Origin: Blastocatellia bacterium
Lineage (GTDB): Bacteria > Acidobacteriota > Blastocatellia > UBA7656
Assembly: GCA_046565505.1 (NCBI GenBank)
Contig: JBKHYJ010000061.1
Location: 26,552 to 90,551 of the forward strand
DNA length: 64,000 nucleotides
Direction of reading: 5' to 3'
Below, piece by piece: positions 3,223 through 63,189 of the stretch. The translations under genes and the position numbers were made by a program. The notes under the pieces were generated by a model. It did no database searches and was not told the DNA's origin. It saw nothing but the letters and a program-made list of their open reading frames with translations. The stretch's first letter is position 1. Each line of letters starts with the position of its first letter.

Positions 3223-4878
3223 ATGAAAAAGTATGCAGTGCTGTGCGTGTGCCTGTCGTTAGCTTCCGTCCTTCTGGTGCCCCGCGAAACAGTCCATTCG
3301 CAGTCGCGCGCGGCGACGGGTCGCAATTACGTGGAAGGAGAGATCATCGTCAAATTCAGGGAGAGCGCGGAGCCCTTCTTAGAAGGACAAATCCCTGAAG
3401 AGATATTTAAAGGGAAGGCCACAAGGGTCGAGCCTTTATCTCGAAGAATGCACGGCAGCATCAACCGCATACGGCTCGGTGAGAATGTGTCTGTTGAAGA
3501 GGCGGTCGAGCAGGCGAAATCCGACCCGCGCGTGGAGTACGCCGAACCGAATTACCTGCTGTATGCCTCGGACACGACGCCGAATGACACTTACTTCACG
3601 AGGTTGTGGGGGATGCTGAACCCGGCCTGCCCCGCCTGTGACAATGGCGCGCGCGCGGACATAGGCGCGACGCGCGCGTGGGACATTACGACCGGCAGCG
3701 ACGACCTCGTCGTGGGCGTGATAGACACGGGCATAGACCTTTCTCACCCCGACCTCGCGCCCAACGCGTGGGTGAACCCGCGAGAGGTTGATGGGAATAA
3801 CGTAGACGACGACGGCAACGGCTACGTCGATGACGTGAACGGCTGGAATTTCTTCAGCGACAGCAAGGAGATCTATAAAGAGCGCTCGGAAGATTTGCAT
3901 GGCACGCACGTCGCCGGGACCATAGGCGCGGCGGGCAATAACGCGACGGGCGTCGCGGGCGTGGCCTGGCATGTGAAGCTCATGTCGCTGAAGTTCCTCG
4001 GCGGCAAGGATGGCAAAGGCTCGACCGGCAACGCGATAGAAGCCATCAACTACGCCATAGACCAGAAGCAGCGGGGTGTTAACATAAGAGTGCTCAACGC
4101 GAGCTGGGGCGGGGGCGGAAACTCCGCGGCGCTGCGCGAAGCGATCGCCGCGGCGGGAGAGGCGGGGATCGTGTTCGTATGCGCGGCGGGCAACGACGGC
4201 GAGGACGGCGACGCGTCCGACCATTTCCCTTCCGGCTACGCCCGCGAGCTTTCGAGCTGCGTGTCGGTCGCCGCGATCGACTCGCAAGACAACCTCGCTT
4301 CATTCTCAAACTATGGGCACAGCACCGTGAGCGTGGCCGCGCCCGGTTACCAGATTCTGAGCACGGTGCCGGAGGGCGGCTACAGCTCACTGAGCGGCAC
4401 CTCTATGGCTTCGCCGCACGTGGCCGGCGTGGCGGCGCTGCTTTTGTCCAAAGAGCCGTCGCTCACCCCGGCGGAAGTGAAGCAGCGAATTATCACGACG
4501 GCCGAGCCGATCCCTGCCCTGGTGTCTAAGGCCGTAAGCTCCGGCCGCGTGAATGCGTTTGACGCCCTGACGAGCAGGATCGCCCCCGCCGCTAAACCGG
4601 GCATCGTGAATGTGACGATAGATAAAAAGACGGTCACCATCGATGGCTTAGGTTTCTTGAGCAACTCCTCGGTTGTGGAAGTTAATGGGGCGCCGCTTTC
4701 GGGCATTAACTACGACAACTCCTACTCGCTCGCCAACGGTACGATCACAAGGCTGAGCATAGAACTGGGCAAGAAGGGCATAAAGAAGAACTTCCCGAAG
4801 GGCGAATATGTAAGCTTTACGGTTCTCAATTCGACGACGGGCGAGCGGTCCGCGCGATTCAGCACGGCGAGGTTTTAG
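3223..4878 (+). CDS. Secreted subtilisin-like serine protease, peptidase S8, with I9 propeptide and a C-terminal beta domain
   Basis: Signal peptide MKKYAVLCVCLSLASVLLVP. Catalytic triad motifs IDTGIDLSHPDL (Asp), HGTHVAGTIGA (His) and GTSMASPHVAGVAALL (Ser). Propeptide-like VEGEIIVKFRE. GAGG is 6 nt upstream of the ATG. Confidence 0.9.
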   Translation: MKKYAVLCVCLSLASVLLVPRETVHSQSRAATGRNYVEGEIIVKFRESAEPFLEGQIPEEIFKGKATRVEPLSRRMHGSINRIRLGENVSVEEAVEQAKSDPRVEYAEPNYLLYASDTTPNDTYFTRLWGMLNPACPACDNGARADIGATRAWDITTGSDDLVVGVIDTGIDLSHPDLAPNAWVNPREVDGNNVDDDGNGYVDDVNGWNFFSDSKEIYKERSEDLHGTHVAGTIGAAGNNATGVAGVAWHVKLMSLKFLGGKDGKGSTGNAIEAINYAIDQKQRGVNIRVLNASWGGGGNSAALREAIAAAGEAGIVFVCAAGNDGEDGDASDHFPSGYARELSSCVSVAAIDSQDNLASFSNYGHSTVSVAAPGYQILSTVPEGGYSSLSGTSMASPHVAGVAALLLSKEPSLTPAEVKQRIITTAEPIPALVSKAVSSGRVNAFDALTSRIAPAAKPGIVNVTIDKKTVTIDGLGFLSNSSVVEVNGAPLSGINYDNSYSLANGTITRLSIELGKKGIKKNFPKGEYVSFTVLNSTTGERSARFSTARF

Positions 4879-5091: not shown

Positions 5092-5233
5092 GAGACGCGC
5101 GCGGCGACCTGATTGCTCACTCATGGGGTCAACCCGGATGAAATGAGCAGTCGATCCGCATTCCGTAAATAAAACACATGACGGCGTGGCGGCTTCTCCG
5201 CACATCGGTGCAAGCCTCACAGAGGTTAGATTG

Positions 5234-6925
5234 ATGAAGAAGTGCGTAGTTTCGTTTTTGGCGCTGGCCATCTTTTCCTTCACTTTCATCCCGCACAACA
5301 TCGCGTATTCGCAGGCGCGCAAAAACACCGGGCGGCGCTTCGTAGAAGGCGAGATCATCGTCAAGCTCAGGGAGGATGTCGAGCAGATTCATGACGAGCA
5401 GATGCCCGAGCAGATACTCAGGGGGAGGAACGCGAGGGTTGAGTCCCTGTCCCGGTCCGGCCGGGGCGGCATGAGCCTGGTCCATCTCGACTCGAACATC
5501 TCTGTCGAAGAGGCCATCCGGGCGGCGAACGAAGACCCGCGCGTGGAGTTCGCCGAGCCCAACTACCTCTACGGCCCGGCCGACACGATCCCGCTAGACG
5601 CGCAGTTCGTGTCCCTCTGGGGCCTGCGCAACACGGGCAACAACTCCCTGTCACAGGGCATCGCCGGCATCGACATAAGCGCGACGCGCGCGTGGGACAT
5701 CACGACAGGGAGCGATAATATAGTCGCGGCGATCATAGATACGGGCGTTGACCTCTCCCACCCCGACCTCAGGCCTAACGCATGGAAGAACCCTGGCGAG
5801 ATCGCGGGCAATAACATAGACGACGATGGCAATGGCTATGTCGATGACGTGAATGGCTGGAACTTCGCCGCCGACAGCAACAGGACGTTCGAGGATTTTT
5901 CTATCGACCGGCACGGCACACACGTGGCGGGCACGCTCGGCGCGGCGGCCGACGACGAGCACATAGGGGTGGTAGGCGTCGCGTGGCACGTGAAGCTCAT
6001 GTCGCTGAAGTTCATAGGCAGGCAGGACGACGGCCGGGTCGCGGGCACAAGCTCGGACGCCGTGAAGGCCATCAACTACGCCATCGACATGAAACACCGT
6101 GGCGTGAACCTCCGCGTAATCAACGCGAGCTGGGCCGGCGACAGTAATTCAAAGGCGCTGCGGAAGGCCATAGATAAAGCGGGCCAGGAAGGAATACTGT
6201 TTGTCTGCGCGGCGGGAAATGGCGGCGACGACAACTCTCAAGACGACGTGGACGAAGGCTCCGTGTTCCCCGCGGGGTGGGCGGCCGATTCACCTTCCGT
6301 CTTATCTGTGACTACGATAACTGCTTCGGGAGCCGTCCCCACCTGGGCCAATTACGGCCACACGGGCGTGAGCGTTGCCGCCCCTGGGACTGACATACTG
6401 AGCACGCTCCCCGGAGGCGGGTATGGCATCGACAGCGGCACGTCTATGTCCACCCCGCACGTGGCCGGGATAGCCGTGTTGCTCTGGGCGCAAAATCCGT
6501 CGCTCAGCCCGGCGGAAGTGAAAGCGCGCATAATCTCGACCGCGGACCCGGTGCTGGGACTTGCTTCTCGTTCCGCCAGCGCGGGCCGCGCTAACGCGTA
6601 CAACGCGCTGACGCCGGGGACTCCGCGCCCGCGCCCCGCGCCCGCTATAAGGCTGGTGAGCAGCGATAAGAAGCACCTGACCGTTGATGGCCTGGGCGTC
6701 CTCGATGGCTCGTCGGTCATCGAGGTGAATGGCCTCGCCGTAGATGGCCGCTACGAGTTCGACGAGGCTTACAGGCTCGCGAACGGGACTCTGACGCGGC
6801 TCAGCGTTAAGCTCAGCAAATCGAAGTTGAAAGAGATTTTACCGTCCGGCCAAACGAGGTCGGTTAGCCTCTATAACCCGACGACCGGCGAGCGGTCAGC
6901 TACGGTCTTTTACGTCAGGAACTGA
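5234..6925 (+). CDS. Secreted subtilisin-like serine protease, peptidase S8, paralog of 3223..4878
   Basis: The ORF-track frame opens at 5186. I prefer the ATG at 5234 (MKKCVVSFLALAIFSF, a signal peptide) with GAGG 8 nt upstream. Motifs IDTGVDLSHPDL, HGTHVAGTLGA and GTSMSTPHVAGIAVLL. Same C-terminal domain as subtilisin-1. Confidence 0.9.
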   Translation: MKKCVVSFLALAIFSFTFIPHNIAYSQARKNTGRRFVEGEIIVKLREDVEQIHDEQMPEQILRGRNARVESLSRSGRGGMSLVHLDSNISVEEAIRAANEDPRVEFAEPNYLYGPADTIPLDAQFVSLWGLRNTGNNSLSQGIAGIDISATRAWDITTGSDNIVAAIIDTGVDLSHPDLRPNAWKNPGEIAGNNIDDDGNGYVDDVNGWNFAADSNRTFEDFSIDRHGTHVAGTLGAAADDEHIGVVGVAWHVKLMSLKFIGRQDDGRVAGTSSDAVKAINYAIDMKHRGVNLRVINASWAGDSNSKALRKAIDKAGQEGILFVCAAGNGGDDNSQDDVDEGSVFPAGWAADSPSVLSVTTITASGAVPTWANYGHTGVSVAAPGTDILSTLPGGGYGIDSGTSMSTPHVAGIAVLLWAQNPSLSPAEVKARIISTADPVLGLASRSASAGRANAYNALTPGTPRPRPAPAIRLVSSDKKHLTVDGLGVLDGSSVIEVNGLAVDGRYEFDEAYRLANGTLTRLSVKLSKSKLKEILPSGQTRSVSLYNPTTGERSATVFYVRN

Positions 6926-6938
6926 GCCCTGTTGAAAG

Positions 6939-6978
6939 AGGGCGAATGGCAGGTTTGCTCAGCCTCGCCATTCGCCCT
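6939..6978 (+). terminator. Stem-loop terminator after subtilisin-2
   Basis: 12-bp stem AGGGCGAATGGC / GCCATTCGCCCT with a 16-nt loop, followed by a long C/T-rich tract. Confidence 0.45.
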
Positions 6979-7106
6979 TCCCCTCCCCCTTTCCCCAGTT
7001 CTTTCCCTTTCTTCCCGCCCCGGCTTGTTGGCCGACGCTGGCTGCCATAAAATACCCTCGCGATCAGGGCCCCGACCCGGCGAGCGAATTCTAAGGGAGG
7101 GATAAG

Positions 7107-7901
7107 GTGAGACAGTATTTAGACCTGCTGAAGCGCGTTCTTGAAGACGGCGCCCCGAAAGGCGACCGCACGGGCACAGGCACTTTATCCGTCTTCGGGC
7201 ACCAGATGAGGTTCGATCTGTCTGAAGGATTCCCGCTTTTGACGACGAAGAAATTGCACGTCAAATCAATCATCTATGAGCTCCTATGGTTTTTGAGAGG
7301 CGACACGAATGTCAACTACCTCCGGGACCGCGGCGTGAACATTTGGAATGAATGGGCGGACGAGACGGGCGACCTCGGCCCTGTCTACGGCGCCCAGTGG
7401 AGGTCATGGAGGACGGCCGATGGCCGCACCGTAGACCAGATCAGCCAGGTGATAGAGCAGATTAAATCTGACCCCGATTCGAGGCGGCTGATCGTAAGCG
7501 CCTGGAACGTGGGCGAGCTTGATAGGATGGCTCTCATGCCCTGCCATGCGCTTTTTCAATTTTACGTCGCGCGAGGCAAGCTCTCTTGCCAGCTTTATCA
7601 GAGGTCGGCCGACGTGTTTCTGGGCGTCCCTTTCAACATCGCGTCTTACTCGCTGCTCACTATGATGGTGGCACAGGTCTGCGGCCTCGAACCCGGAGAG
7701 TTTATCCACACCCTGGGCGACGCCCACCTGTATTCCAACCACCTTGAGCAGGCGCGATTGCAACTCGGCCGCGCGCCCAACAGACTCCCTCGAATGAGGA
7801 TTAATCCGGACGTCACGTCTATTTTTGAATTCGGCTACGAGGATTTCGAGCTTACAGGCTACGAGGCCCACCCGCACATTAAAGCCGAAGTCGCTGTTTA
7901 G
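7107..7901 (+). CDS. thyA: Thymidylate synthase
   Basis: GTG start 6 nt after GGGAGG. Classic ThyA sequence ([52 protein letters not shown] active-site Cys region). 264 aa. Confidence 0.95.
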
Positions 7902-8035
7902 AAGAATACCTGCGATAGCAAAAGATTGCTACAGATTATAGGCCAGACAGGTCAGTTAAGTAATCCGAAAAAGCCACGCTATTTGTCTTAACTATAGAGC
8001 CCCGACACCGCAATCAATTAACAATAATTAGCCTC

Positions 8036-8064
8036 TTGACAGGGATTCCTAAAGTAAATAAGAT
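8036..8064 (+). promoter_or_regulatory. Candidate sigma-70 promoter (TTGACA-17-TAAGAT) inside an AT-rich 480-bp intergenic island
   Basis: Perfect -35 hexamer at 8036-8041, 17-bp spacer, TAAGAT at 8059-8064. A hairpin ACTCTAAAGG...CCTTTTTAGAGT at 8106-8156 follows downstream, and the next ORF begins at 8384. Confidence 0.3.
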
Positions 8065-8383
8065 CGCTGGCCTGTTTATGATTTTTTAACAGATGTCATC
8101 AAGGAACTCTAAAGGCAAGGCTACTGCCCGAATCCGAAAATTGCCCTTTTTAGAGTAGTTTCTTAACCGAATCAACTAATTCTGGCCCGTTTGAAGTACC
8201 CCGAGGCTCAAGCTATCGATCGTAAACCTTTTCCAGTCTTTCTGATTTATTAGTTAGCCCCTGATAGTGCGTCAGTTGTCACAAGCAATTGATGTATGCC
8301 GCAACAACCGTCCGGCTTTGGTCGCGAGTTTTTTATAGCATAAAGCCGCGGCGCTTCCACAATTATGCCCCCGGAGGTTAATC

Positions 8384-10756
8384 ATGCAGGAAAAGAGAAG
8401 TATCTCACTCCCGTTAAAATCACAGGCCGGCACAAGCCGGCTGCGAGTTCTGTCTTGCCTGTCGCTTTTGTTTGCCCTCACGCTCGGGGATGTCGGGTAT
8501 GCTTACTCGCTAGCCGACAGAGCGCATAACTCAAAAGTTAAGGCGGGCCGGGCGAAGCAATCACATCGGTCGCCTTCACGCAGCCTGCACGGCATAGTCA
8601 CAATGGCCCCGTCGCGGCCGGGCAGAACGAAGGCTGAAGGTGATGATCTAAACGAATCATTCAAACCCTGGAGAGGAAAAATTTCGTTCGAGGAGGCCCA
8701 GAGCGTTAGCCCGCAAACCGAGGCGCAGCCTGACAGGTCTTTTACCGTCAACCTATCCGAGCTGGCAGGCAAGAAAGAGGGCATCCGGGAGGCGAGAATT
8801 GTCCCGGCCCCTATGCCCCTTTCAGATGCGCCGGGAAAGATAGATGAAGCACGCAAGCTTGACAGCACCCCGCCCGATGAGGCGCAGCCCCCATTGACCC
8901 CCCGCCCGCCGCCGGGCAAGGAGAATTTCGACCCCCAGGCCGATTATGGCCTGGCGGTGGCTCCTACACAGGTGATTCGCGCAATAGACTCTGATGGGTT
9001 TATCCCGCCCGATACTCAGGGCGCCGTCGGCCCTAACCACCTGCTTTCCGCCGCCAACGGTACGGTGCTGGCTCAGACGAGGTCGGGGGCCATCCTTCAC
9101 GCCGTCTCGCTACAGCAATTCGTCGGCGAAACGGATGCTTTCGACCCCCGCGTAGTGTACGACCGGTATAACAATAAGTGGGTATTGGTCGCGGTCGCGC
9201 GCCGCCGCTCGGCGGAGGCCAGGATAATGTTTTGCTGGTCACAAACGAGCGACCCGACAGGGAATTGGGAGGTACGCTTTTACGACGTGGATTCAGCTAA
9301 TCAGGTGTGGGCGGACTTCCCGCGCGTCGGGATCACTCAGGACAGGGTCATCGTAACGTGGAGCGCCGTGCCTATCTCTGGCAGCAACTCCAGCCAGCGT
9401 ATCTGGGTGTGGGATAGCCCCGGCGTCTATTCACAATCAGACCTAACTGCGAAAGGGTGGACGGACCAATCTGGTGCCTACCTCGTGCCGGCATACTCGC
9501 AAGATGCTACACCCGACATATGGATAGTGTGCAAGTGGAACCCTAATTTTGAAGGCGGCGGCTACCTCCGCATAGGTAAGATCACCGGGCCTTTCAACAA
9601 TATGACGTATACCGACAAGGTTTCTTTCGCCCGATCTTTCACCTGGAATCCCATAGATGGCCGCCTTAATTTAGCCCCGCAACTGGGCTCGGCCGCCAGG
9701 ATTAATATTGGCGATGACAATGTGGCGAGCGTGGTATACCGGGGCGGCCAGCTGTGGTGCGCGCAGGCCGTGCTATCGACGAGCAGTCCTTCCACAAGCG
9801 GCGTATACTTCTGGCAGATATCTCCCGCCACGGGCGCCGTCGTGACTTCGCGCATCATCTATGGCCCTGAATACTGGCAATCGCACCCGAGTATAGCCGT
9901 TAACCGCAACAATGACGTGCTCATAGGCGCGTCATATTTCACGGCGGACAGGTACGCTTCGGCGGTTTACTGGTACAAGGCGGCGGGGGGTGACTTTGAA
10001 GGGCAGATATTCGTGGGCGGGGAGGGCGGTTACGTGAACCTCGACAACCTGTCCCGCAACCGCTGGGGCGATTACAGCTCGACGCTCGTCGACCCTAACG
10101 ACGACACTTCGTTTTGGACAATCCAGCAGTATGCACAGGCGGCAAGCTTCCAATCGAAATGGGGGACCGCCTGGGCAAAGGTGGGAGGCTCGCGCGAGGA
10201 CGGAGGGGGGCTCGCGCCGGGCGCGCCCTCCAATCTTGTGGTGACGGATATAAACACCAATGACCTTGTGCTCAGATGGACGGATAACAGCAACAACGAG
10301 TCTGGTTTCAGGCTGGAAACGCTCGACGGCACTTCCTGGCGCGAATTCGGCACCACCAGTGCGAACGTGATGGCTGTAAGGGTCACAGGGCTTACAGCCG
10401 ACACGTCATACAGATTCCGCATAAGAGCCTACAACGCTGCCGGCCCTTCGGCGTACTCAAATGAGGCCTCGGCTAGAACGTCGCTTGGTCTCTCCGCCCC
10501 GGTCGGCTTGCGCGCCACAAAGATTAAGAAGAAGGCGATAAGCATCGCATGGCAAGACACGGCGTCAAACGAAACCAGGTATGAGGTGCTCCAGCGTGTG
10601 GGGGCGGCATTCTCGGTGATCGGGTCTCTGGGCGCGAACGCGAGCGCGGCGAAGGTAACCGGACTACAACGCCAGACTATTTATACTTTTGCCGTGAGGG
10701 CTTGTAACAGCGGCGGGTGTTCTAGCCAGTCAGAGGTTACTGCCGTAACCCGGTAA
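8384..10756 (+). CDS. Secreted protein of unknown function with two C-terminal fibronectin type III domains
   Basis: Signal-like N-terminus (LRVLSCLSLLFALTLG). Two FN3-like modules of about 90 aa (LVLRWTDNSNNESGFRLE...YRFRIRAYNAAGPS and ISIAWQDTASNETRYEVL...YTFAVRACNSGG). Noticeably lower GC and rarer codons (AGA, ATA) than the neighbouring genes. GGAGG lies 7 nt upstream of the ATG. Confidence 0.6.
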   Translation: MQEKRSISLPLKSQAGTSRLRVLSCLSLLFALTLGDVGYAYSLADRAHNSKVKAGRAKQSHRSPSRSLHGIVTMAPSRPGRTKAEGDDLNESFKPWRGKISFEEAQSVSPQTEAQPDRSFTVNLSELAGKKEGIREARIVPAPMPLSDAPGKIDEARKLDSTPPDEAQPPLTPRPPPGKENFDPQADYGLAVAPTQVIRAIDSDGFIPPDTQGAVGPNHLLSAANGTVLAQTRSGAILHAVSLQQFVGETDAFDPRVVYDRYNNKWVLVAVARRRSAEARIMFCWSQTSDPTGNWEVRFYDVDSANQVWADFPRVGITQDRVIVTWSAVPISGSNSSQRIWVWDSPGVYSQSDLTAKGWTDQSGAYLVPAYSQDATPDIWIVCKWNPNFEGGGYLRIGKITGPFNNMTYTDKVSFARSFTWNPIDGRLNLAPQLGSAARINIGDDNVASVVYRGGQLWCAQAVLSTSSPSTSGVYFWQISPATGAVVTSRIIYGPEYWQSHPSIAVNRNNDVLIGASYFTADRYASAVYWYKAAGGDFEGQIFVGGEGGYVNLDNLSRNRWGDYSSTLVDPNDDTSFWTIQQYAQAASFQSKWGTAWAKVGGSREDGGGLAPGAPSNLVVTDINTNDLVLRWTDNSNNESGFRLETLDGTSWREFGTTSANVMAVRVTGLTADTSYRFRIRAYNAAGPSAYSNEASARTSLGLSAPVGLRATKIKKKAISIAWQDTASNETRYEVLQRVGAAFSVIGSLGANASAAKVTGLQRQTIYTFAVRACNSGGCSSQSEVTAVTR

Positions 10757-10808
10757 ATCGGTTTGCCGGATTACAGGCCCCCTCAGGGACGCTTCATTGA
10801 GCAGTATT

Positions 10809-10836
10809 GAAAGGCGGGCGCTCTTGCCCGCCTTTC
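10809..10836 (+). terminator. Stem-loop terminator after the FN3 protein gene
   Basis: Perfect 11-bp stem GAAAGGCGGGC / GCCCGCCTTTC with loop GCTCTT, followed by the short T-containing stretch CGATTT. Confidence 0.5.
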
Positions 10837-10846
10837 GATTTACCCT

Positions 10847-10865
10847 CCACTGATTACTGCAGTGG
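10847..10865 (+). promoter_or_regulatory. Palindrome CCACTG-N7-CAGTGG upstream of folA; possible operator
   Basis: Perfect 6-bp arms. The half-motifs ATTACTGC (10888) and GCAGTGG (10912) recur about 40 bp downstream. Confidence 0.25.
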
Positions 10866-11103
10866 TATTAAGGTCTTAAATTATGGATTACTGCTGACGA
10901 ATTCATTTATTATTGCAGTGGGTTCGGGTTGAGAGAAAGGAAAGACCGTGAATGCGTAATAGTTTTTTCAAGCGCCGGCGGGAGGCGGTGTGCCTGAGTG
11001 ACGCCGCGCGAAAGAACCCAGGCTTTTTTCGCGGCCCCGTAAGACCGCCCTGTGGCGCTCAAGGGTACGAAGCCCGCCCGCGCATTCACGCCGAGGTGGA
11101 GGT

Positions 11104-11652
11104 GTGATTATATCTCTGCTCGTGGCAATGGATGAGAAGGGCGGGATCGGCAAGGACAATCATTTGCCCTGGCGGTTGTCTACGGACTTGAAAAGATTTC
11201 GGGAATTAACCCTGGGGCACCACATCCTCGTGGGGAGGAAAACTTTTCAGTCCATAGGCAGGCCCCTGCCCGGGAGGCAGACTGTCGTCGTCACTCGCGA
11301 CGAAGGCTTCCGCCCCGAAGGGTGTCTTGTGGCCCGCTCAGTCGAAGATGGCATACGGCTGGCGCGGGAGCGCGGGGAAAGCGAACTCTTCATTTGCGGG
11401 GGCGCGGAAATCTACGCCGGCTCATTGCGCGCGGCGGACCGGATGTACATGACTCTCGTCCACGCGACGGTTGATGCCGATACTTTCTTCCCCGAGTGGG
11501 AGAGCGGTGAATGGGTAGAGCAGGAGGTAGCGCGTCACGAAGCGGACGCCAAGAATGAATTCCCATTCAGTTTCAAAGTGCTCACTAGGAAAGTCGCCGG
11601 CCGCGGGGCGCATAGAGAAGACGCGAACCTCCGAACAGGCTCCGAGAGCTGA
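11104..11652 (+). CDS. folA: Dihydrofolate reductase
   Basis: GTG start after GAGGTGGAGG. DHFR signature MIISLLVAMDEKGGIGKDNHLPWRLSTDLKRFRELT...HILVGRKTF. 182 aa. Confidence 0.9.
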   Translation: MIISLLVAMDEKGGIGKDNHLPWRLSTDLKRFRELTLGHHILVGRKTFQSIGRPLPGRQTVVVTRDEGFRPEGCLVARSVEDGIRLARERGESELFICGGAEIYAGSLRAADRMYMTLVHATVDADTFFPEWESGEWVEQEVARHEADAKNEFPFSFKVLTRKVAGRGAHREDANLRTGSES

Positions 11653-11703
11653 TTCCGGGAGTCGGGCGTCGTCGCCCGATGGCAGGCATTCGCTTCCAGG
11701 AAT

Positions 11704-12180
11704 GTGCGGATTGATACTACCGATATGGTTGAGCTGAAAATCAAGATGCTTGACGAGAGCTTGCCGACGCCGCGCTATCAGCACGAAGGCGACGCGGGCC
11801 TAGACCTGCCGAGCCGCGTGGATTTCGTGCTGGAGCCGGGCGAGCGGGCTACCATACCGACGGGGGTGGCCGTGGCGATACCTCGCGGGTACGCGGGATT
11901 CGTGCTGGTCCGAAGCGGGCTGGCTTCGCGACATGGCATATCCTGTGTGAACTCGCCCGGACTGATCGACGCAGGTTATCGCGGCGAGATAGCCGTGATA
12001 ATGATCAACACGGATAAGCGCGAGCCGCTTCACATCAGGCGGGGCGACCGCATCGCGCAGCTAGTCGTTCAGAAGGTGGAAGAAGCCACTCTAATCAGAG
12101 TTGACGAGTTGGATGAAACGGCGCGCGGGGCGGGCGGCTTCGGCAGCACGGGGAGGGCGGGCGGCCCGACGCGCGAGTGA
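11704..12180 (+). CDS. dut: dUTP diphosphatase (dUTPase)
   Basis: Motifs AGLDLPS, PTGVAVAIPRGYAGFV, RSGLASRHGI and GLIDAGYRGEIAVIMIN are dUTPase motifs I-IV. The start may instead be the ATG at 11725. Confidence 0.9.
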   Translation: MRIDTTDMVELKIKMLDESLPTPRYQHEGDAGLDLPSRVDFVLEPGERATIPTGVAVAIPRGYAGFVLVRSGLASRHGISCVNSPGLIDAGYRGEIAVIMINTDKREPLHIRRGDRIAQLVVQKVEEATLIRVDELDETARGAGGFGSTGRAGGPTRE

Positions 12181-12417
12181 GCGCGGAGCCATTATTCGCC
12201 GTGCGGCGCGGCCGGAACGACCGGAACACGGGCGGGCGCCGGAAGGAGAAATTTATCAACGTTTACGCGACTTTCGGCGCAAAACCCGCAAGAATCTTTA
12301 TTTCCTGAAGCTACCAAAATGTGAAATGCAGTTGACATTTCTGCTTGCCCGGACTGTTGCCGCTGGTAAACTGATACTGTATTCTTACACCAGCAGTTGA
12401 AAATAAGCGAGCAAACC

Positions 12418-13437
12418 ATGCACGATCTAATAATAGTAGGTGGCGGCCCGGCGGGCCTGTCGGCAGCCCTGTACGCAAAGCGGCGCGGACTCGATTATCT
12501 TGTGCTGGAGCGGGGCGCGATTGCCGACACGATCTATCATTACCCGATAGCCAGGCGCCTGTTTTCGACGTCGAATGAGGTGGAGCTTGAGCAAAGCGCT
12601 TTGCCGCGCGGCGCTAAGCCGACCCGTGAAGAAGTGCTCGCACACTACACTAAGCTCCTCAGGCGAGAGCAGGTCGCCATTAATACTGGTGAAGACGTGC
12701 GGCGGGTGGCTCGTACGGGACGGAGTTTCCTGGTCGAGACGAATGAGGGCAGGTACGAGGGCCGCACGGTGTTGTTAGCCATTGGCGGATTCGGGATTCA
12801 GCGGAAGCTCGGCGTCGCGGGCGAATCGGAATCGCGAGTCTCTTATCAATTCGTAGAGGCGCATCCCTACGCCATGAAGCGCGTGCTGGTCGTAGGCGGC
12901 GGCAACTCCGCCGCCGAAGCGGCATTGTACCTTTCAGAAGCGGGGGCCGGCGTCACGCTTTCAATTCGCCGCCGGTCGCTCGACCAGATGGTTGATTATG
13001 ACAACATAGGCACGGCGGCGTCCAAGACAGCCGCTAAAATTAAGCCGTGGGTGCGCGAGCCACTTGAACGCGCGGTGGCAGAAGGGTTGATTGATATAAT
13101 TCTAGCTTCGGAGGTGGCGGAGATTCGGCCCCGTAGCGTGCTTCTGCGCGTCATGAGCGGCGAGGGGGCGGAAATAATAGAGATCGAATGCCATCACGTT
13201 TTCGCCCTGATAGGCGCGGACCCTGATTTGCGCCTGCTACAGCAGGCGGGGGCCGAGATCGCTGCCGATGGCCGCCCGGTTTACACGCGCGAGTTCGAGA
13301 CCACCGTGCCAGGCCTTTACGTGGCCGGGCACCTCACGCGCGAGCTGCACATGAAAAACGCTATAGAGACCGGGCGGAAAGTTGTAGATCATATCGCGTC
13401 CAGAGTATTTGAAGAGAGCCTGACTTGTAACGTGTGA
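12418..13437 (+). CDS. FAD/NAD(P)-binding pyridine-nucleotide-disulfide oxidoreductase (thioredoxin-reductase-like, YpdA-type)
   Basis: GxGxxG Rossmann motif HDLIIVGGGPAGLSAALYA and a second dinucleotide motif RVLVVGGGNSAAEAA. The ORF-track start at 12397 is TTG. ATG at 12418 preferred. Confidence 0.7.
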   Translation: MHDLIIVGGGPAGLSAALYAKRRGLDYLVLERGAIADTIYHYPIARRLFSTSNEVELEQSALPRGAKPTREEVLAHYTKLLRREQVAINTGEDVRRVARTGRSFLVETNEGRYEGRTVLLAIGGFGIQRKLGVAGESESRVSYQFVEAHPYAMKRVLVVGGGNSAAEAALYLSEAGAGVTLSIRRRSLDQMVDYDNIGTAASKTAAKIKPWVREPLERAVAEGLIDIILASEVAEIRPRSVLLRVMSGEGAEIIEIECHHVFALIGADPDLRLLQQAGAEIAADGRPVYTREFETTVPGLYVAGHLTRELHMKNAIETGRKVVDHIASRVFEESLTCNV

Positions 13438-55303: not shown

Positions 55304-55780
55304 ATGACGGCTTCATGGAAGTATGTGAAACGGTTGATAGCTGTGGTGCTGGGGTTGTTGGGATTAGCAAGCTGGGTCGCGCTACAAACGCCCGCCATGA
55401 TGGCCGCGTCTGTATCTTCATGCGGCACCTCCAACTCAATTACATTCGCAGGCGAATCATACGACCGGGCCGCGTATGATGGGGCAGGTCTTGCACGCGG
55501 CCGGACGGCGCGCAAGCTGCGCGGCGATATCCCGCCGGTATCTGAAGCGAATCGCGAGCACGCAGGTACTGGTATAAAGTTCATCTCGGGCGATGGCGGA
55601 TACAATTTTCACTCGGCCCCATGCGGGGCGGTAACGGGATTGCGGATTGCGCATTTGGGCATACGGAATGCGGGACTGCGCAGCGCGGTTTATAGTCCTC
55701 CCCAATCGCAATCCGCAACTATATTGAAAGCAAATCTGAAATACCGTGTCCGGCCAAGCCTGGTCATGGCTGAACGATGA
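55304..55780 (+). CDS. Doubtful ORF (158 aa, signal-like N-terminus) overlapping a palindromic repeat
   Basis: Hydrophobic N-terminus LIAVVLGLLGLASWVAL, but the body overlaps inverted repeats sharing the CGGATTGCG core and has atypical composition. Confidence 0.2.
   Translation: MTASWKYVKRLIAVVLGLLGLASWVALQTPAMMAASVSSCGTSNSITFAGESYDRAAYDGAGLARGRTARKLRGDIPPVSEANREHAGTGIKFISGDGGYNFHSAPCGAVTGLRIAHLGIRNAGLRSAVYSPPQSQSATILKANLKYRVRPSLVMAER
55641..55717. repeat. Inverted repeat with 11-bp arms TGCGGATTGCG / CGCAATCCGCA and a 55-nt spacer (palindrome family member A)
   Basis: Perfect arms at 55641-55651 and 55707-55717. The core CGGATTGCG is shared with the palindrome at 56317-56414. Confidence 0.5.
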
Positions 55781-61528: not shown

Positions 61529-62626
61529 TCATTGATGTACCAGGAAAACATCCCAGGCCCACCGGCCGGCGTGCGCGCCTTTCGCGTCATAAACTTTGGC
61601 CCGATATCTGAAGCCGTTTCCGTACTGGTCAGTCCGCTTTGACTCTTCGTATTTGAGGTCTATGCCGGTCACGCCGAGCGCCGGCAGCGTGAACGTCTCG
61701 CCGGGGTCTGAAAAACCATTATGGTTCTGATCTTTCCATAAACGGAGGGAAGAAAAGATTGCGTCTTTGCTGTCTACTCTCTCATCAAGGTTGCCGCCGT
61801 TCTCCGGCCTGTCATATTCGGCCAGCGCCTTGAAGCCATTCGCAGACATTGAGTAAGCCTGCGGGGTGAGGGTCCCGAATAACTCCGTCGCGTCGTCTAT
61901 AATGCCATTCGCATTGCGGTCTAAAACAAGCCAGGCGTCATCAGAGTTAGCAGAGGTCCAGGATATCCTCATCCTAGTGCCGCTCGCCGTAATGTCGAAG
62001 TTCACTCCGTTCTGCGCATCAGTTAAATCAAACCCATCGCCCGACGTGTCTATAACGATAGGTGATATGCAACGATTTGCCCAGCAGATCTGTTGATCGG
62101 AGCAGGTGTCGCAAGCGGCTACGGGGTCAGTCACGGTCAGGGTAAGATTGCTTATTTGTGCGGGAGTACCCAGCGTCGCTCCGGTAGGCGAGGAGAGAGT
62201 CACACGGCTTGTGATCGACCCACCAGTCGAGTTAGTGTTGGTAGTTTTGAACTTGAAAGTTACGGTCGTACTTTGACCTCCGCCTGGCAAATTAATCGTT
62301 TGGGAGCGGGTTAACGTACCGCTGGGGTCGGCAACAGTATATGCTACGCCGCTGAAATTAGTGTCCTCGGTTACTGTAACCGTTGCCGATGCCCCACTCG
62401 TGTCTACAGAGGTCGCGATACCGATGTTTAAATTGGAAGCTTGCCCTTGCGCTCCAATAGAAGTAGGCGTAAAGGATGCGCCACCTAGCCAGACTGTGCC
62501 GGCAAGAGGTCTAATAATTGAAGCAGAAGTCGATGCTATGGGACTATCTATATCTGAAACGGGAATGAGGGCGGCACTGCACAGGAAAATAACGCTTCCG
62601 ATTGTCAGCAATATACGCCCCGACAT
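61529..62626 (-). CDS. Hypothetical secreted Thr/Ser-rich beta protein
   Basis: Signal peptide MSGRILLTIGSVIFLCSAALIP with AAGGGGGG upstream of the ATG at 62626. The N-terminal half is T/S-rich repeats. The C-terminal half carries D-rich segments (DTSGDGFDLTD) that may bind calcium. Confidence 0.45.
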   Translation of the reverse strand: MSGRILLTIGSVIFLCSAALIPVSDIDSPIASTSASIIRPLAGTVWLGGASFTPTSIGAQGQASNLNIGIATSVDTSGASATVTVTEDTNFSGVAYTVADPSGTLTRSQTINLPGGGQSTTVTFKFKTTNTNSTGGSITSRVTLSSPTGATLGTPAQISNLTLTVTDPVAACDTCSDQQICWANRCISPIVIDTSGDGFDLTDAQNGVNFDITASGTRMRISWTSANSDDAWLVLDRNANGIIDDATELFGTLTPQAYSMSANGFKALAEYDRPENGGNLDERVDSKDAIFSSLRLWKDQNHNGFSDPGETFTLPALGVTGIDLKYEESKRTDQYGNGFRYRAKVYDAKGAHAGRWAWDVFLVHQ

Positions 62627-63189
62627 AAAGCCCCCCTTAAGTGTAAATTTTTGCGACCATAATAACGCAACGTTTATATCATTTACTCGATGGGCGGTCA
62701 AGAAAATAGTCCTGCCCTTAGACAAGGGTATGGTTTAGCTCTCCTCATCAGCGGGCGCGTCGAAAACTTCGAAGTGCTGTGTGATACTCGCTCCGCGCAC
62801 TCAGCGGGCTGTACTCATCAGATGGCGTCAGGCTATAGGCATAGGCGCGTCTGCGGCGCGCGCAATGACTGTTCGACCAGGAAGGGCCGGGTCAGTTGGC
62901 CGGTGTTACTGACCTTTGAAGGCTATGAATTCTAACACATGACTCTAGAGGCTCGACCCGCTGAACACCTACCACTGCCGCATGAGGATAGATTTCAACT
63001 TTACGGATCGGACGCGAGTATTCTACCTTAATTTCATTAAAGCTCATGAGAAGCTATTCAATATGGCGTATGAAGTGGGGGAGGGTGATTACATTAATGG
63101 GCCTACGCGCTGACCGCGGCGCGGCCGTTGACGGCATTGCTCGCGTCGGGTCTGGGCCTGAATTCAATTGACACACCCGGAGGGTACTC

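Follow-up and report, generated by a model that had tools for sequence, protein, structure and literature searches.

The stretch of DNA analysed here, referred to below as the window, comprises 64,000 nucleotides (nt) from a soil Blastocatellia bacterium (contig JBKHYJ010000061.1, positions 26,552 to 90,551 of the forward strand) and has an overall G+C content of 60.9%. It carries three genes of deoxythymidine monophosphate (dTMP) synthesis, thyA, folA and dut, with a large gene of another kind, here called X, standing between the first two. All four genes lie on the + strand, and folA and dut are now separated from thyA by a distance of 3.2 kb. An earlier note, written from the letters alone, had recognised thyA, folA and dut as a dTMP-synthesis cluster, a reading that the Pfam matches of all three genes support. 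The genes of the locus and one short remnant, which we call the fossil, are as follows:

7107-7901, + strand: thyA, thymidylate synthase, 264 amino acids (aa) (PF00303, E 1e-127)
8384-10756, + strand: open reading frame (ORF) X, 790 aa, identical to GenBank MFP5262691.1
11063-11107, + strand: fossil of an ancestral thyA 3′ end, reading GYEARPRIHAEVEV followed by a stop, directly before folA
11104-11652, + strand: folA (PF00186, E 9e-55)
11704-12180, + strand: dut (PF00692, E 3e-32)

The GenBank entry identical to X bears the title 'MAG: fibronectin type III domain-containing protein [Blastocatellia bacterium]', where MAG stands for metagenome-assembled genome. To place this arrangement in context, we compared the best 80 thyA loci, taking one genome per species. 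In 68 of the 80, folA lies next to thyA on the same strand; the gap between the two genes is at most 30 nt in 37 loci and at most 250 nt in 57, and a relative of X is encoded in none of them (0/80). The nearest loci are those of the Acidobacteriota contigs L003, L008 and L057, and in all three thyA and folA overlap through a shared GTGA. L003 belongs to a Blastocatellia MAG whose thyA is 78% identical to that of the window and which also shares the upstream order Band_7-S8 peptidase-thyA. The order thyA-X-folA was found again in L001 and L083, contigs of the same species as the window with about 95% nt identity.

The sequence directly before folA retains a trace of the older arrangement. Positions 11063-11107 (GGG TAC GAA GCC CGC CCG CGC ATT CAC GCC GAG GTG GAG GTG TGA) correspond to the last 14 codons of thyA plus the stop, in decayed form, the left copy being the last 45 nt of thyA itself at 7857-7901. 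Ten of the 14 residues are the same as in the C-terminus of the window ThyA, and 11 of 14 in the sister strain L001, where fossil and thyA share an identical core of 18 nt, CCCGCACATTAAAGCCGA. The TGA of the fossil overlaps the GTG start of folA as GTGA, in the position and with the overlap of the real thyA stop in L003, a type of junction also present in L008 and L057. In addition, the fossil carries the ribosome-binding site of folA, GGAGG. Shuffled versions of the spacer reached an equal score, in any frame, in 3 of 2000 cases, a test that ignores the exact positional coincidence. Beyond about 45-55 nt the fossil could not be followed: the similarity fades about 50 nt upstream, and identity is at background by 90-120 nt.

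Because the fossil ends in the GTGA overlap, we read the junction as having been split by the insert with a duplication of about 45 nt. In the ancestor of this Blastocatellia species, thyA and folA overlapped through a shared GTGA, and the ribosome-binding site of folA was part of the 3′ end of thyA. An insert of about 3.16 kb (7902-11062) then entered the junction and the last ~45 nt of thyA were duplicated; one copy completes thyA, and the other (11063-11107) has decayed as coding sequence but still provides folA with its ribosome-binding site and start context. Synteny across 80 genomes and the thyA 3′-end fossil are independent grounds, and because of them we conclude that a DNA insertion has split the conserved thyA-folA junction of the dTMP-synthesis cluster. 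An insertion into a conserved cluster had been proposed in the earlier note, and both grounds are stronger than the evidence given there. That X stood between thyA and folA ancestrally and was lost repeatedly elsewhere is so improbable that we give it almost no weight: it can draw only on the presence of this order in three near-identical contigs of one species, while thyA sits beside folA in different phyla, the nearest Acidobacteriota included, the X orthologue described below lies at a different place, and the fossil with its GTGA overlap upstream of folA effectively refutes it.

Our searches returned no relevant literature on thyA-folA insertions in Acidobacteria. Unrelated genes interrupt the same pair in other phyla: L035 (7796-11679) has genes for PMT_2, UbiA, HAD and methyltransferase proteins, L031 (836-2829) has arginase and ornithine cyclodeaminase, and L077 (7796-9071) has a beta-lactamase-family gene between thyA and folA. 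This class of event is therefore not unusual. With more than 250 nt between thyA and folA in 11 of the 68 loci, the junction can be regarded as a recurrent insertion point. Upstream of the window thyA stand two tandem genes for secreted S8 subtilases (3223-4878 and 5186-6925), which are 54% identical paralogues with fervidolysin-like prodomains; one of the two is syntenic with L003.

Among about 5.8 billion proteins, the only other orthologue of X is P0002, with 70% aa identity overall and 79% in the central domain. It is encoded on the Logan contig L002, where X lies between guaB, which is divergent, and proS. The ProS encoded there shares about 80% identity with many ProS proteins of Blastocatellia, and L002 was therefore assigned to Blastocatellia. 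Two relatives of L002, the contigs L092 and L093, have guaB and proS flanks of 83-85% nt identity without X between them, and homology to them breaks off at L002 positions 1168 and 4346, bracketing 3,177 bp. Alignment of the window with L002 shows that conservation is not confined to the gene: the non-coding parts kept in both are an upstream box, the -35 and -10 hexamers with their spacing, the sequence GCTGGCCTGTT at the predicted start, parts of the leader in several blocks, the Shine-Dalgarno region and the terminator hairpin. The non-coding elements around X are as follows:

7902-8008, no strand assigned: spacer from the thyA stop to the conserved cassette, 84% identical to sister strain L001, at or below the neutral level
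8009-8070, + strand: promoter block (consensus scan; invariant against L001, kept in L002)
8008-8019, + strand: upstream box CCGCAATCAATT, which contains TCAATT, invariant in all three sequences
8036-8041, + strand: -35 hexamer TTGACA (consensus scan)
8059-8064, + strand: -10 hexamer TAAGAT (consensus scan)
8071-8383, + strand: non-coding 5′ leader of ~313 nt with a putative start (conservation against L001 and L002)
8189-8213: candidate hairpin in the leader
8272-8292: palindrome TCAGTTG-N7-CAATTGA in the leader
8373-8377: Shine-Dalgarno sequence GGAGG of X
10806-10839, + strand: intrinsic terminator with a 14-bp stem AUUGAAAGGCGGGC/GCCCGCCUUUCGAU, a 6-nt loop and a U-rich tail (fold, conservation)
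10848-10979, no strand assigned: conserved AT-rich block between terminator and fossil, 5 differences in 132 nt against L001 (P ~9e-4)

A core of about 8009-10840 is thus delimited, which consists of a sigma-70-like promoter, the ~313-nt leader, one ORF and an intrinsic terminator; the spacer before it (7902-8008) has at most weak homology to L002. These alignments show that the cassette travels as a unit and has occupied two housekeeping intervals in two Blastocatellia lineages. We accordingly describe the core as an autonomous monocistronic cassette, in which promoter, leader, ORF and terminator go together. The guaB-proS interval is itself variable in Blastocatellia: it holds the X cassette in L002 (1169-4345), a gene with SBP_bac_3 and SLT domains in L092 (2006-3911) and a 109-aa ORF in L093 (5161-6000).

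The promoter had been called textbook in the earlier note. Its hexamers, TTGACA-17-TAAGAT, agree with the consensus at 10 of 12 positions across a 17-nt spacer, and no second site of this kind occurs in 5 kb. As chance alone would give 2.3, the consensus match is not significant by itself. The site does lie exactly where the note had placed it, and the cassette at the other locus, with its 70%-identity orthologue, has TTGACT-17-TAAAAT in the corresponding position. Comparison with L001 points the same way. On a neutral scale set by the proportion of synonymous differences in X (pS 0.158) and by third-position identities of 0.88-0.91 in nine genes, with ordinary intergenic identities of 0.82-0.94 (mostly 0.86-0.89), the stretch 8009-8092 has no difference at all (P ~2e-5 at 12% neutral divergence). 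We therefore regard 8036-8064 as the predicted sigma-70-type promoter of the cassette, with transcription probably starting at about 8071.

Constraint continues through the leader. Only 9 differences from L001 occur in the 252 nt of 8132-8383 (P<=2e-6 at 12% divergence), and the changes in the leader cluster at 8093-8131, partly in the loop of a hairpin at 8106-8156. Against L002, the leader has 59-71% identity in blocks interrupted by frame-breaking indels. A coding leader was considered and rejected on the lack of periodicity, the broken frames and the lack of a conserved ORF: the mismatches with L002 show no 3-nt periodicity, and window and L002 share no small ORF in the leader. Given conservation far beyond neutral, the region 8009-8383 is under purifying selection and likely to have a regulatory role. 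Searches for relatives of the leader returned nothing in the rest of the window and, with nhmmer, nothing upstream of the distant paralogues P0003 and P0004. A 375-nt non-coding region that is under strong constraint and moves with its gene seems to us worth cataloguing.

The earlier note had singled out the hairpin at 8106-8156 and had suggested that the promoter might drive a small RNA ending there. At -16.1 kcal/mol (z=-1.75) the hairpin is equalled by 13 of 200 shuffles, and it is not kept in the L002 orthologue; as a structure it is neither significant nor conserved. The small-RNA proposal, an independent transcript from 8071 to this hairpin, has a good promoter upstream, and the window-L001 substitutions cluster in the loop (8120-8131) and leave the stems unchanged. 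Set against this, the hairpin is AT-rich, lacks the GC-rich stem and U-run of a terminator and was not called by the terminator scan, its z-score and its absence from L002 are as given, and conservation runs on undiminished to the start codon of X. It is the least supported of the possibilities we weighed, and we consider it highly unlikely.

Two further readings of the conserved leader were compared. In the first, the leader is a structured cis-regulatory RNA, riboswitch-like or responsive to temperature or a protein, which would control translation or termination of X, possibly by base-pairing between CCUGU at its 5′ end (8071-8075) and the start region AUGCAGG. Strong purifying selection on a non-coding leader fits such a role. 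In the RNAalifold consensus, 94.9% of cells are paired and 8 of the 79 pairs have changed on both sides; shuffles give 3.0+/-1.5 such pairs, with 2 in 500 attaining the observed count. The hairpins 8189-8213 and 8267-8299 are kept through compensatory or wobble changes. However, this comparison has effectively two independent sequences, the structure was derived from the same alignment and the controls are biased, so the covariation signal is only suggestive. Moreover, the single-sequence fold of the leader is unremarkable (z=-1.7), and the covariance models of Rfam 15 gave no match in 7902-8383 at E<=1; over 6500-12500 they gave a single match, a chance one to the terminator. Nor does an RNA model explain why the helix with the best conservation forms a palindrome at the DNA level and repeats a motif that occurs upstream of the promoter. 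This reading is possible, and we hold it with reserve.

In the second, the leader and promoter carry operator sites for a DNA-binding regulator, which would repress the cassette promoter by looping or as a roadblock. Half-sites of the TCAATTG type occur upstream of the -35 hexamer (8014), at about +95 (8163-8172) and in the palindrome at about +205 (8272-8292). In the 389 nt of the L002 promoter and leader, TCAATT occurs four times (0.29 expected, P=2e-4), with TCAATT(G) at positions 1411, 1563, 1665 and 1679, and all three copies of TCAATTG in the 11-kb L002 locus fall within promoter and leader. In the window, the motif stands at the aligned positions either exactly (P=0.04) or with one letter changed, and the site at 8008-8019 lies upstream of the transcribed region and is invariant in the three sequences. 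On the other hand, the cassette brings no regulator gene with it, a large part of the conserved sequence falls outside the motifs, and the motif is short and AT-rich within AT-rich DNA. We lean somewhat further towards operators than towards RNA structure and would call neither probable when taken singly. It is most likely that the leader carries the cassette's own regulation, whether by repeated TCAATTG operators, RNA structure or both.

At its other end the cassette closes with a hairpin of -27.5 kcal/mol (z=-6.4; none of 200 shuffles is as stable), which begins 50 nt after the X stop and is followed by UUUCGAUUU. Both L001 and L002 keep it; the loop varies, and changes at the base of the stem are compensatory. 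The terminator scan called it too, and it appears as I5 among the inverted repeats. Hairpin and tail are those of a Rho-independent terminator, at which transcription is predicted to end. Given so strong a cassette terminator, folA and dut probably need a promoter of their own. The AT-rich block that follows, 10848-10979, contains three ATTAYTGC(A/T)G repeats (at 10852, 10886 and 10908; direct-repeat family D1) and has no homologous counterpart in the cassette of L002, from which it is absent. The block may serve folA-dut as a replacement promoter or operator, and these two genes would then be expressed from a new promoter in this block or else by read-through.

The earlier note had also argued from base composition: it described an AT-rich intergenic region and a gene with unusual AGA, ATA and AAA codons, and inferred horizontal acquisition. 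The AT-rich region is real: nowhere else in the window does G+C fall as low as in 7902-8383 (482 nt), where it drops to 0.397 over 300 nt, compared with 0.609 for the whole window and about 0.46 in the next-lowest regions. For the gene the contrast does not hold. The G+C content at third codon positions (GC3) of X is 0.680 against a mean of 0.782 for the 37 other ORFs (z=-2.35), and an index resembling the codon adaptation index gives z=-2.2; native neighbours have similar GC3 values (thyA 0.709, folA 0.694, and 0.671 for the oxidoreductase gene at 12397-13437). AGA does make up 17% of the Arg codons in X against 4.6% (z=+2.7), as the note had said, but it reaches 15% in thyA and 11% in folA, and ATA among Ile codons (z=+0.8) and AAA among Lys codons (z=-0.6) are ordinary. 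In L002 the GC3 of X is again about 0.08 below that of its neighbours, so the low value belongs to the gene itself and does not clearly point to a recent arrival from elsewhere. As composition and codons fail to separate X from its native neighbours and both carriers are Blastocatellia, the claim of horizontal acquisition is not upheld; all that the data allow is a putative relocation or transfer of the cassette within this class. Much stronger compositional outliers in the window are the ORFs 61529-62725 (- strand, 398 aa) and 55304-55780 (+ strand, 158 aa), with GC3 values of 0.551 and 0.572 and no Pfam match, which may be spurious or foreign.

The protein itself is under purifying selection, with a ratio of nonsynonymous to synonymous differences (pN/pS) of 0.12 against L001. 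Its structure was modelled with AlphaFold2 (AF2) using 60 homologues, which gave the following parts:

aa 1-43: signal peptide, with a signal-anchor-like helix at aa 18-43
between signal peptide and propeller: disordered, low-confidence linker in which a single short beta-hairpin motif (aa 102-128) is conserved
aa 191-605 (nt 8954-10198): beta-propeller, all-beta, AF2 confidence score (pLDDT) mostly >90 (residues 195-600)
aa 611-700: first FN3 module (PF00041)
aa 703-790: second FN3 module (PF00041)

The signal peptide and two FN3 modules that the earlier note had read from this ORF are borne out by the N-terminal signal-like helix and by a PF00041 match of 77.9 bits (cut-off 25) that falls into two stretches; matches to FN3 structures in PDB reach E 1e-23, and AF2 builds two 7-strand modules. 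Its estimate of about 500 aa for the central domain was too long, as the structured part predicted here spans about 415 aa (residues 191-605). Its failure to recognise a family for this part was justified: the propeller has no match in Pfam and none in NCBIfam at E<=1, and a profile from the 60-sequence alignment found PDB sequences at a best E of 0.54. Taken together, X is probably an exported protein with a seven-bladed beta-propeller of ~415 aa.

The propeller defines a large family, with 9,575 clusters at 50% identity reaching E<=1e-3 and 4,353 reaching E<=1e-10. Its members are secreted multi-domain proteins of Acidobacteriota, Planctomycetota, Verrucomicrobiota, Bacteroidota and others, in which the propeller nearly always follows directly after the signal peptide and precedes variable modules (P-domain, Calx-beta, BACON, Big, a type IX secretion system (T9SS) tail or FN3), and databases name them only by these accessory domains. 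Residues D210, D311, D444, R453 and D570 are invariant and H219, D254, D260, R560 and D563 nearly so; they fall in the motifs IPPDTxGAVGPNH, FDPxVxYD, SQTSDPTGxW and NRWGDYS. A literature search on the RWGDY motif returned nothing relevant. The neighbourhoods of five distant members contain no conserved partner gene; distant members are mostly monocistronic and stand among housekeeping genes, proteases or other secreted propellers. Two of them, in L084 (4227-5000) and L085 (4349-5000), with 35-37% identity, are monocistronic among housekeeping genes and are preceded by gaps of 650-770 nt of low G+C for their locus and without similarity to the window leader; long upstream regions may thus be a trait of the propeller family. 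A very large propeller family that has neither a Pfam or NCBIfam model nor a solved relative is, in our view, also worth cataloguing.

As Foldseek with the full-length model was uninformative, being dominated by FN3 matches, the search was repeated with the propeller only. Sialidases and polysaccharide lyases then came out on top (E 1e-6, TM score 0.49), among them 7mhu (E 1.2e-6), 7esk and 7drq. From the fold, the accessory modules and this weak similarity to sialidases and lyases, we tentatively suggest that X could be an extracellular propeller that binds or cleaves glycans.

Our overall best explanation, to which we assign a probability of roughly 0.8, is therefore an insertion into the thyA-folA junction with duplication of the thyA end, by an autonomous cassette that would encode an exported propeller and carry its own regulation in the leader. 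Several results weigh against it. Concerning the mechanism of insertion, no integrase, transposase or recombinase gene was found in the window insert, nor were terminal inverted repeats bounding 7902-11062 or a short target-site duplication. Only two diverged lineages of the cassette are present among the ~5.8 billion proteins, so that the analysis of the leader rests on effectively two sequences, and metagenome-wide pattern scans returned no leader blocks from a collection that evidently does not include the sample of L001. For folA, a consensus scan detected no sigma-70 promoter-like site. Composition does not mark X as foreign relative to thyA and folA. Finally, a GH33-type sialidase or BNR protein would have a FRIP motif, several Asp-boxes (SxDxGxTW), six blades and a Pfam match to BNR, BNR_2 or Sialidase, and X has no sialidase motifs and no Pfam BNR matches.

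How the insert arrived can be narrowed to some extent. X is the only credible ORF in it, and the flanking repeat is 45 nt of thyA and not a duplication of 2-14 nt, which sets the insert apart from insertion sequences and transposons. An integrase island would have a tyrosine or serine recombinase gene and att-like direct repeats at the 3′ end of a conserved gene; here the 3′ end of thyA is directly repeated, and neither the insert nor the L002 locus has a recombinase gene. We nevertheless weighed an eroded island of the integrase type that targeted the thyA 3′ end, bringing in the replacement end at 7857-7901 and displacing the original to 11063-11107, with the integrase and the rest deleted later. 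The degenerate ~45-nt direct repeats of a conserved gene's 3′ end that flank the insert, with the CCCGCACATTAAAGCCGA core in L001, are what such an event would leave. Yet the 3.2 kb hold no integrase or second gene, the second site known for the cassette, guaB-proS in L002, lies between genes and is unrelated, and the flanks of the two cassette copies lack homology, also under circular permutation. Selection alone can furthermore explain the duplication, since a cell survives only those events that preserve both the end of thyA and the ribosome-binding site of folA. We regard an eroded island as rather unlikely. A circular intermediate, with the flanks of the window and L002 cassettes as its two halves, was rejected, as no alignment exceeded shuffles. 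Similarly doubtful is the boldest reading, a minimal mobile cassette lacking a recombinase, with an undescribed cis-regulatory leader (RNA or multi-operator), which can enter essential housekeeping junctions of Blastocatellia (thyA/folA, guaB/proS) and whose cargo founds an undescribed family of seven-bladed propeller enzymes of ~10,000 clusters.

The insertion with duplication overturns nothing in current understanding. Its interest lies in offering a clean, datable case in which an overlapping, translationally coupled essential pair was split without killing the cell, the duplicated junction letting thyA keep its catalytically important C-terminus and folA its ribosome-binding site.

Among known propellers, those of GH33, GH93, PL42 FoRham1 and ulvan lyase are likewise secreted all-beta domains of ~400 aa followed by FN3 or other modules in the style of carbohydrate enzymes; X also has in common with them one Asp-box-like turn (SQTSDPTGNW, aa 286-295). 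With the seven-bladed propellers of E. coli YncE, Vgb lyase and the CylK type, X has 7-9% identity, no relationship at the sequence level and other conserved residues.

With regard to the insertion itself, phage 21 and e14 at icd are integrative elements that restore the 3′ end of the gene they enter, as are islands found at the 3′ ends of tRNA genes. In elements of the phage 21/e14 type, as in the window, diverged direct repeats of a gene's 3′ end flank the insert, the gene remains intact and the displaced end decays; the window insert differs in having no integrase, a length of 3.2 kb, a single cargo gene and an unrelated second site. Lineage-specific insertions of accessory genes into conserved operons are comparable as well: there too, a widespread pair is broken up by a gene that has nothing to do with it and comes with a promoter and terminator of its own. 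Unlike these, the event in the window left a datable scar, the 45-nt duplicated and decayed thyA end, which keeps the folA initiation context, and its cassette, including the non-coding parts, is also found at a second locus in another lineage.

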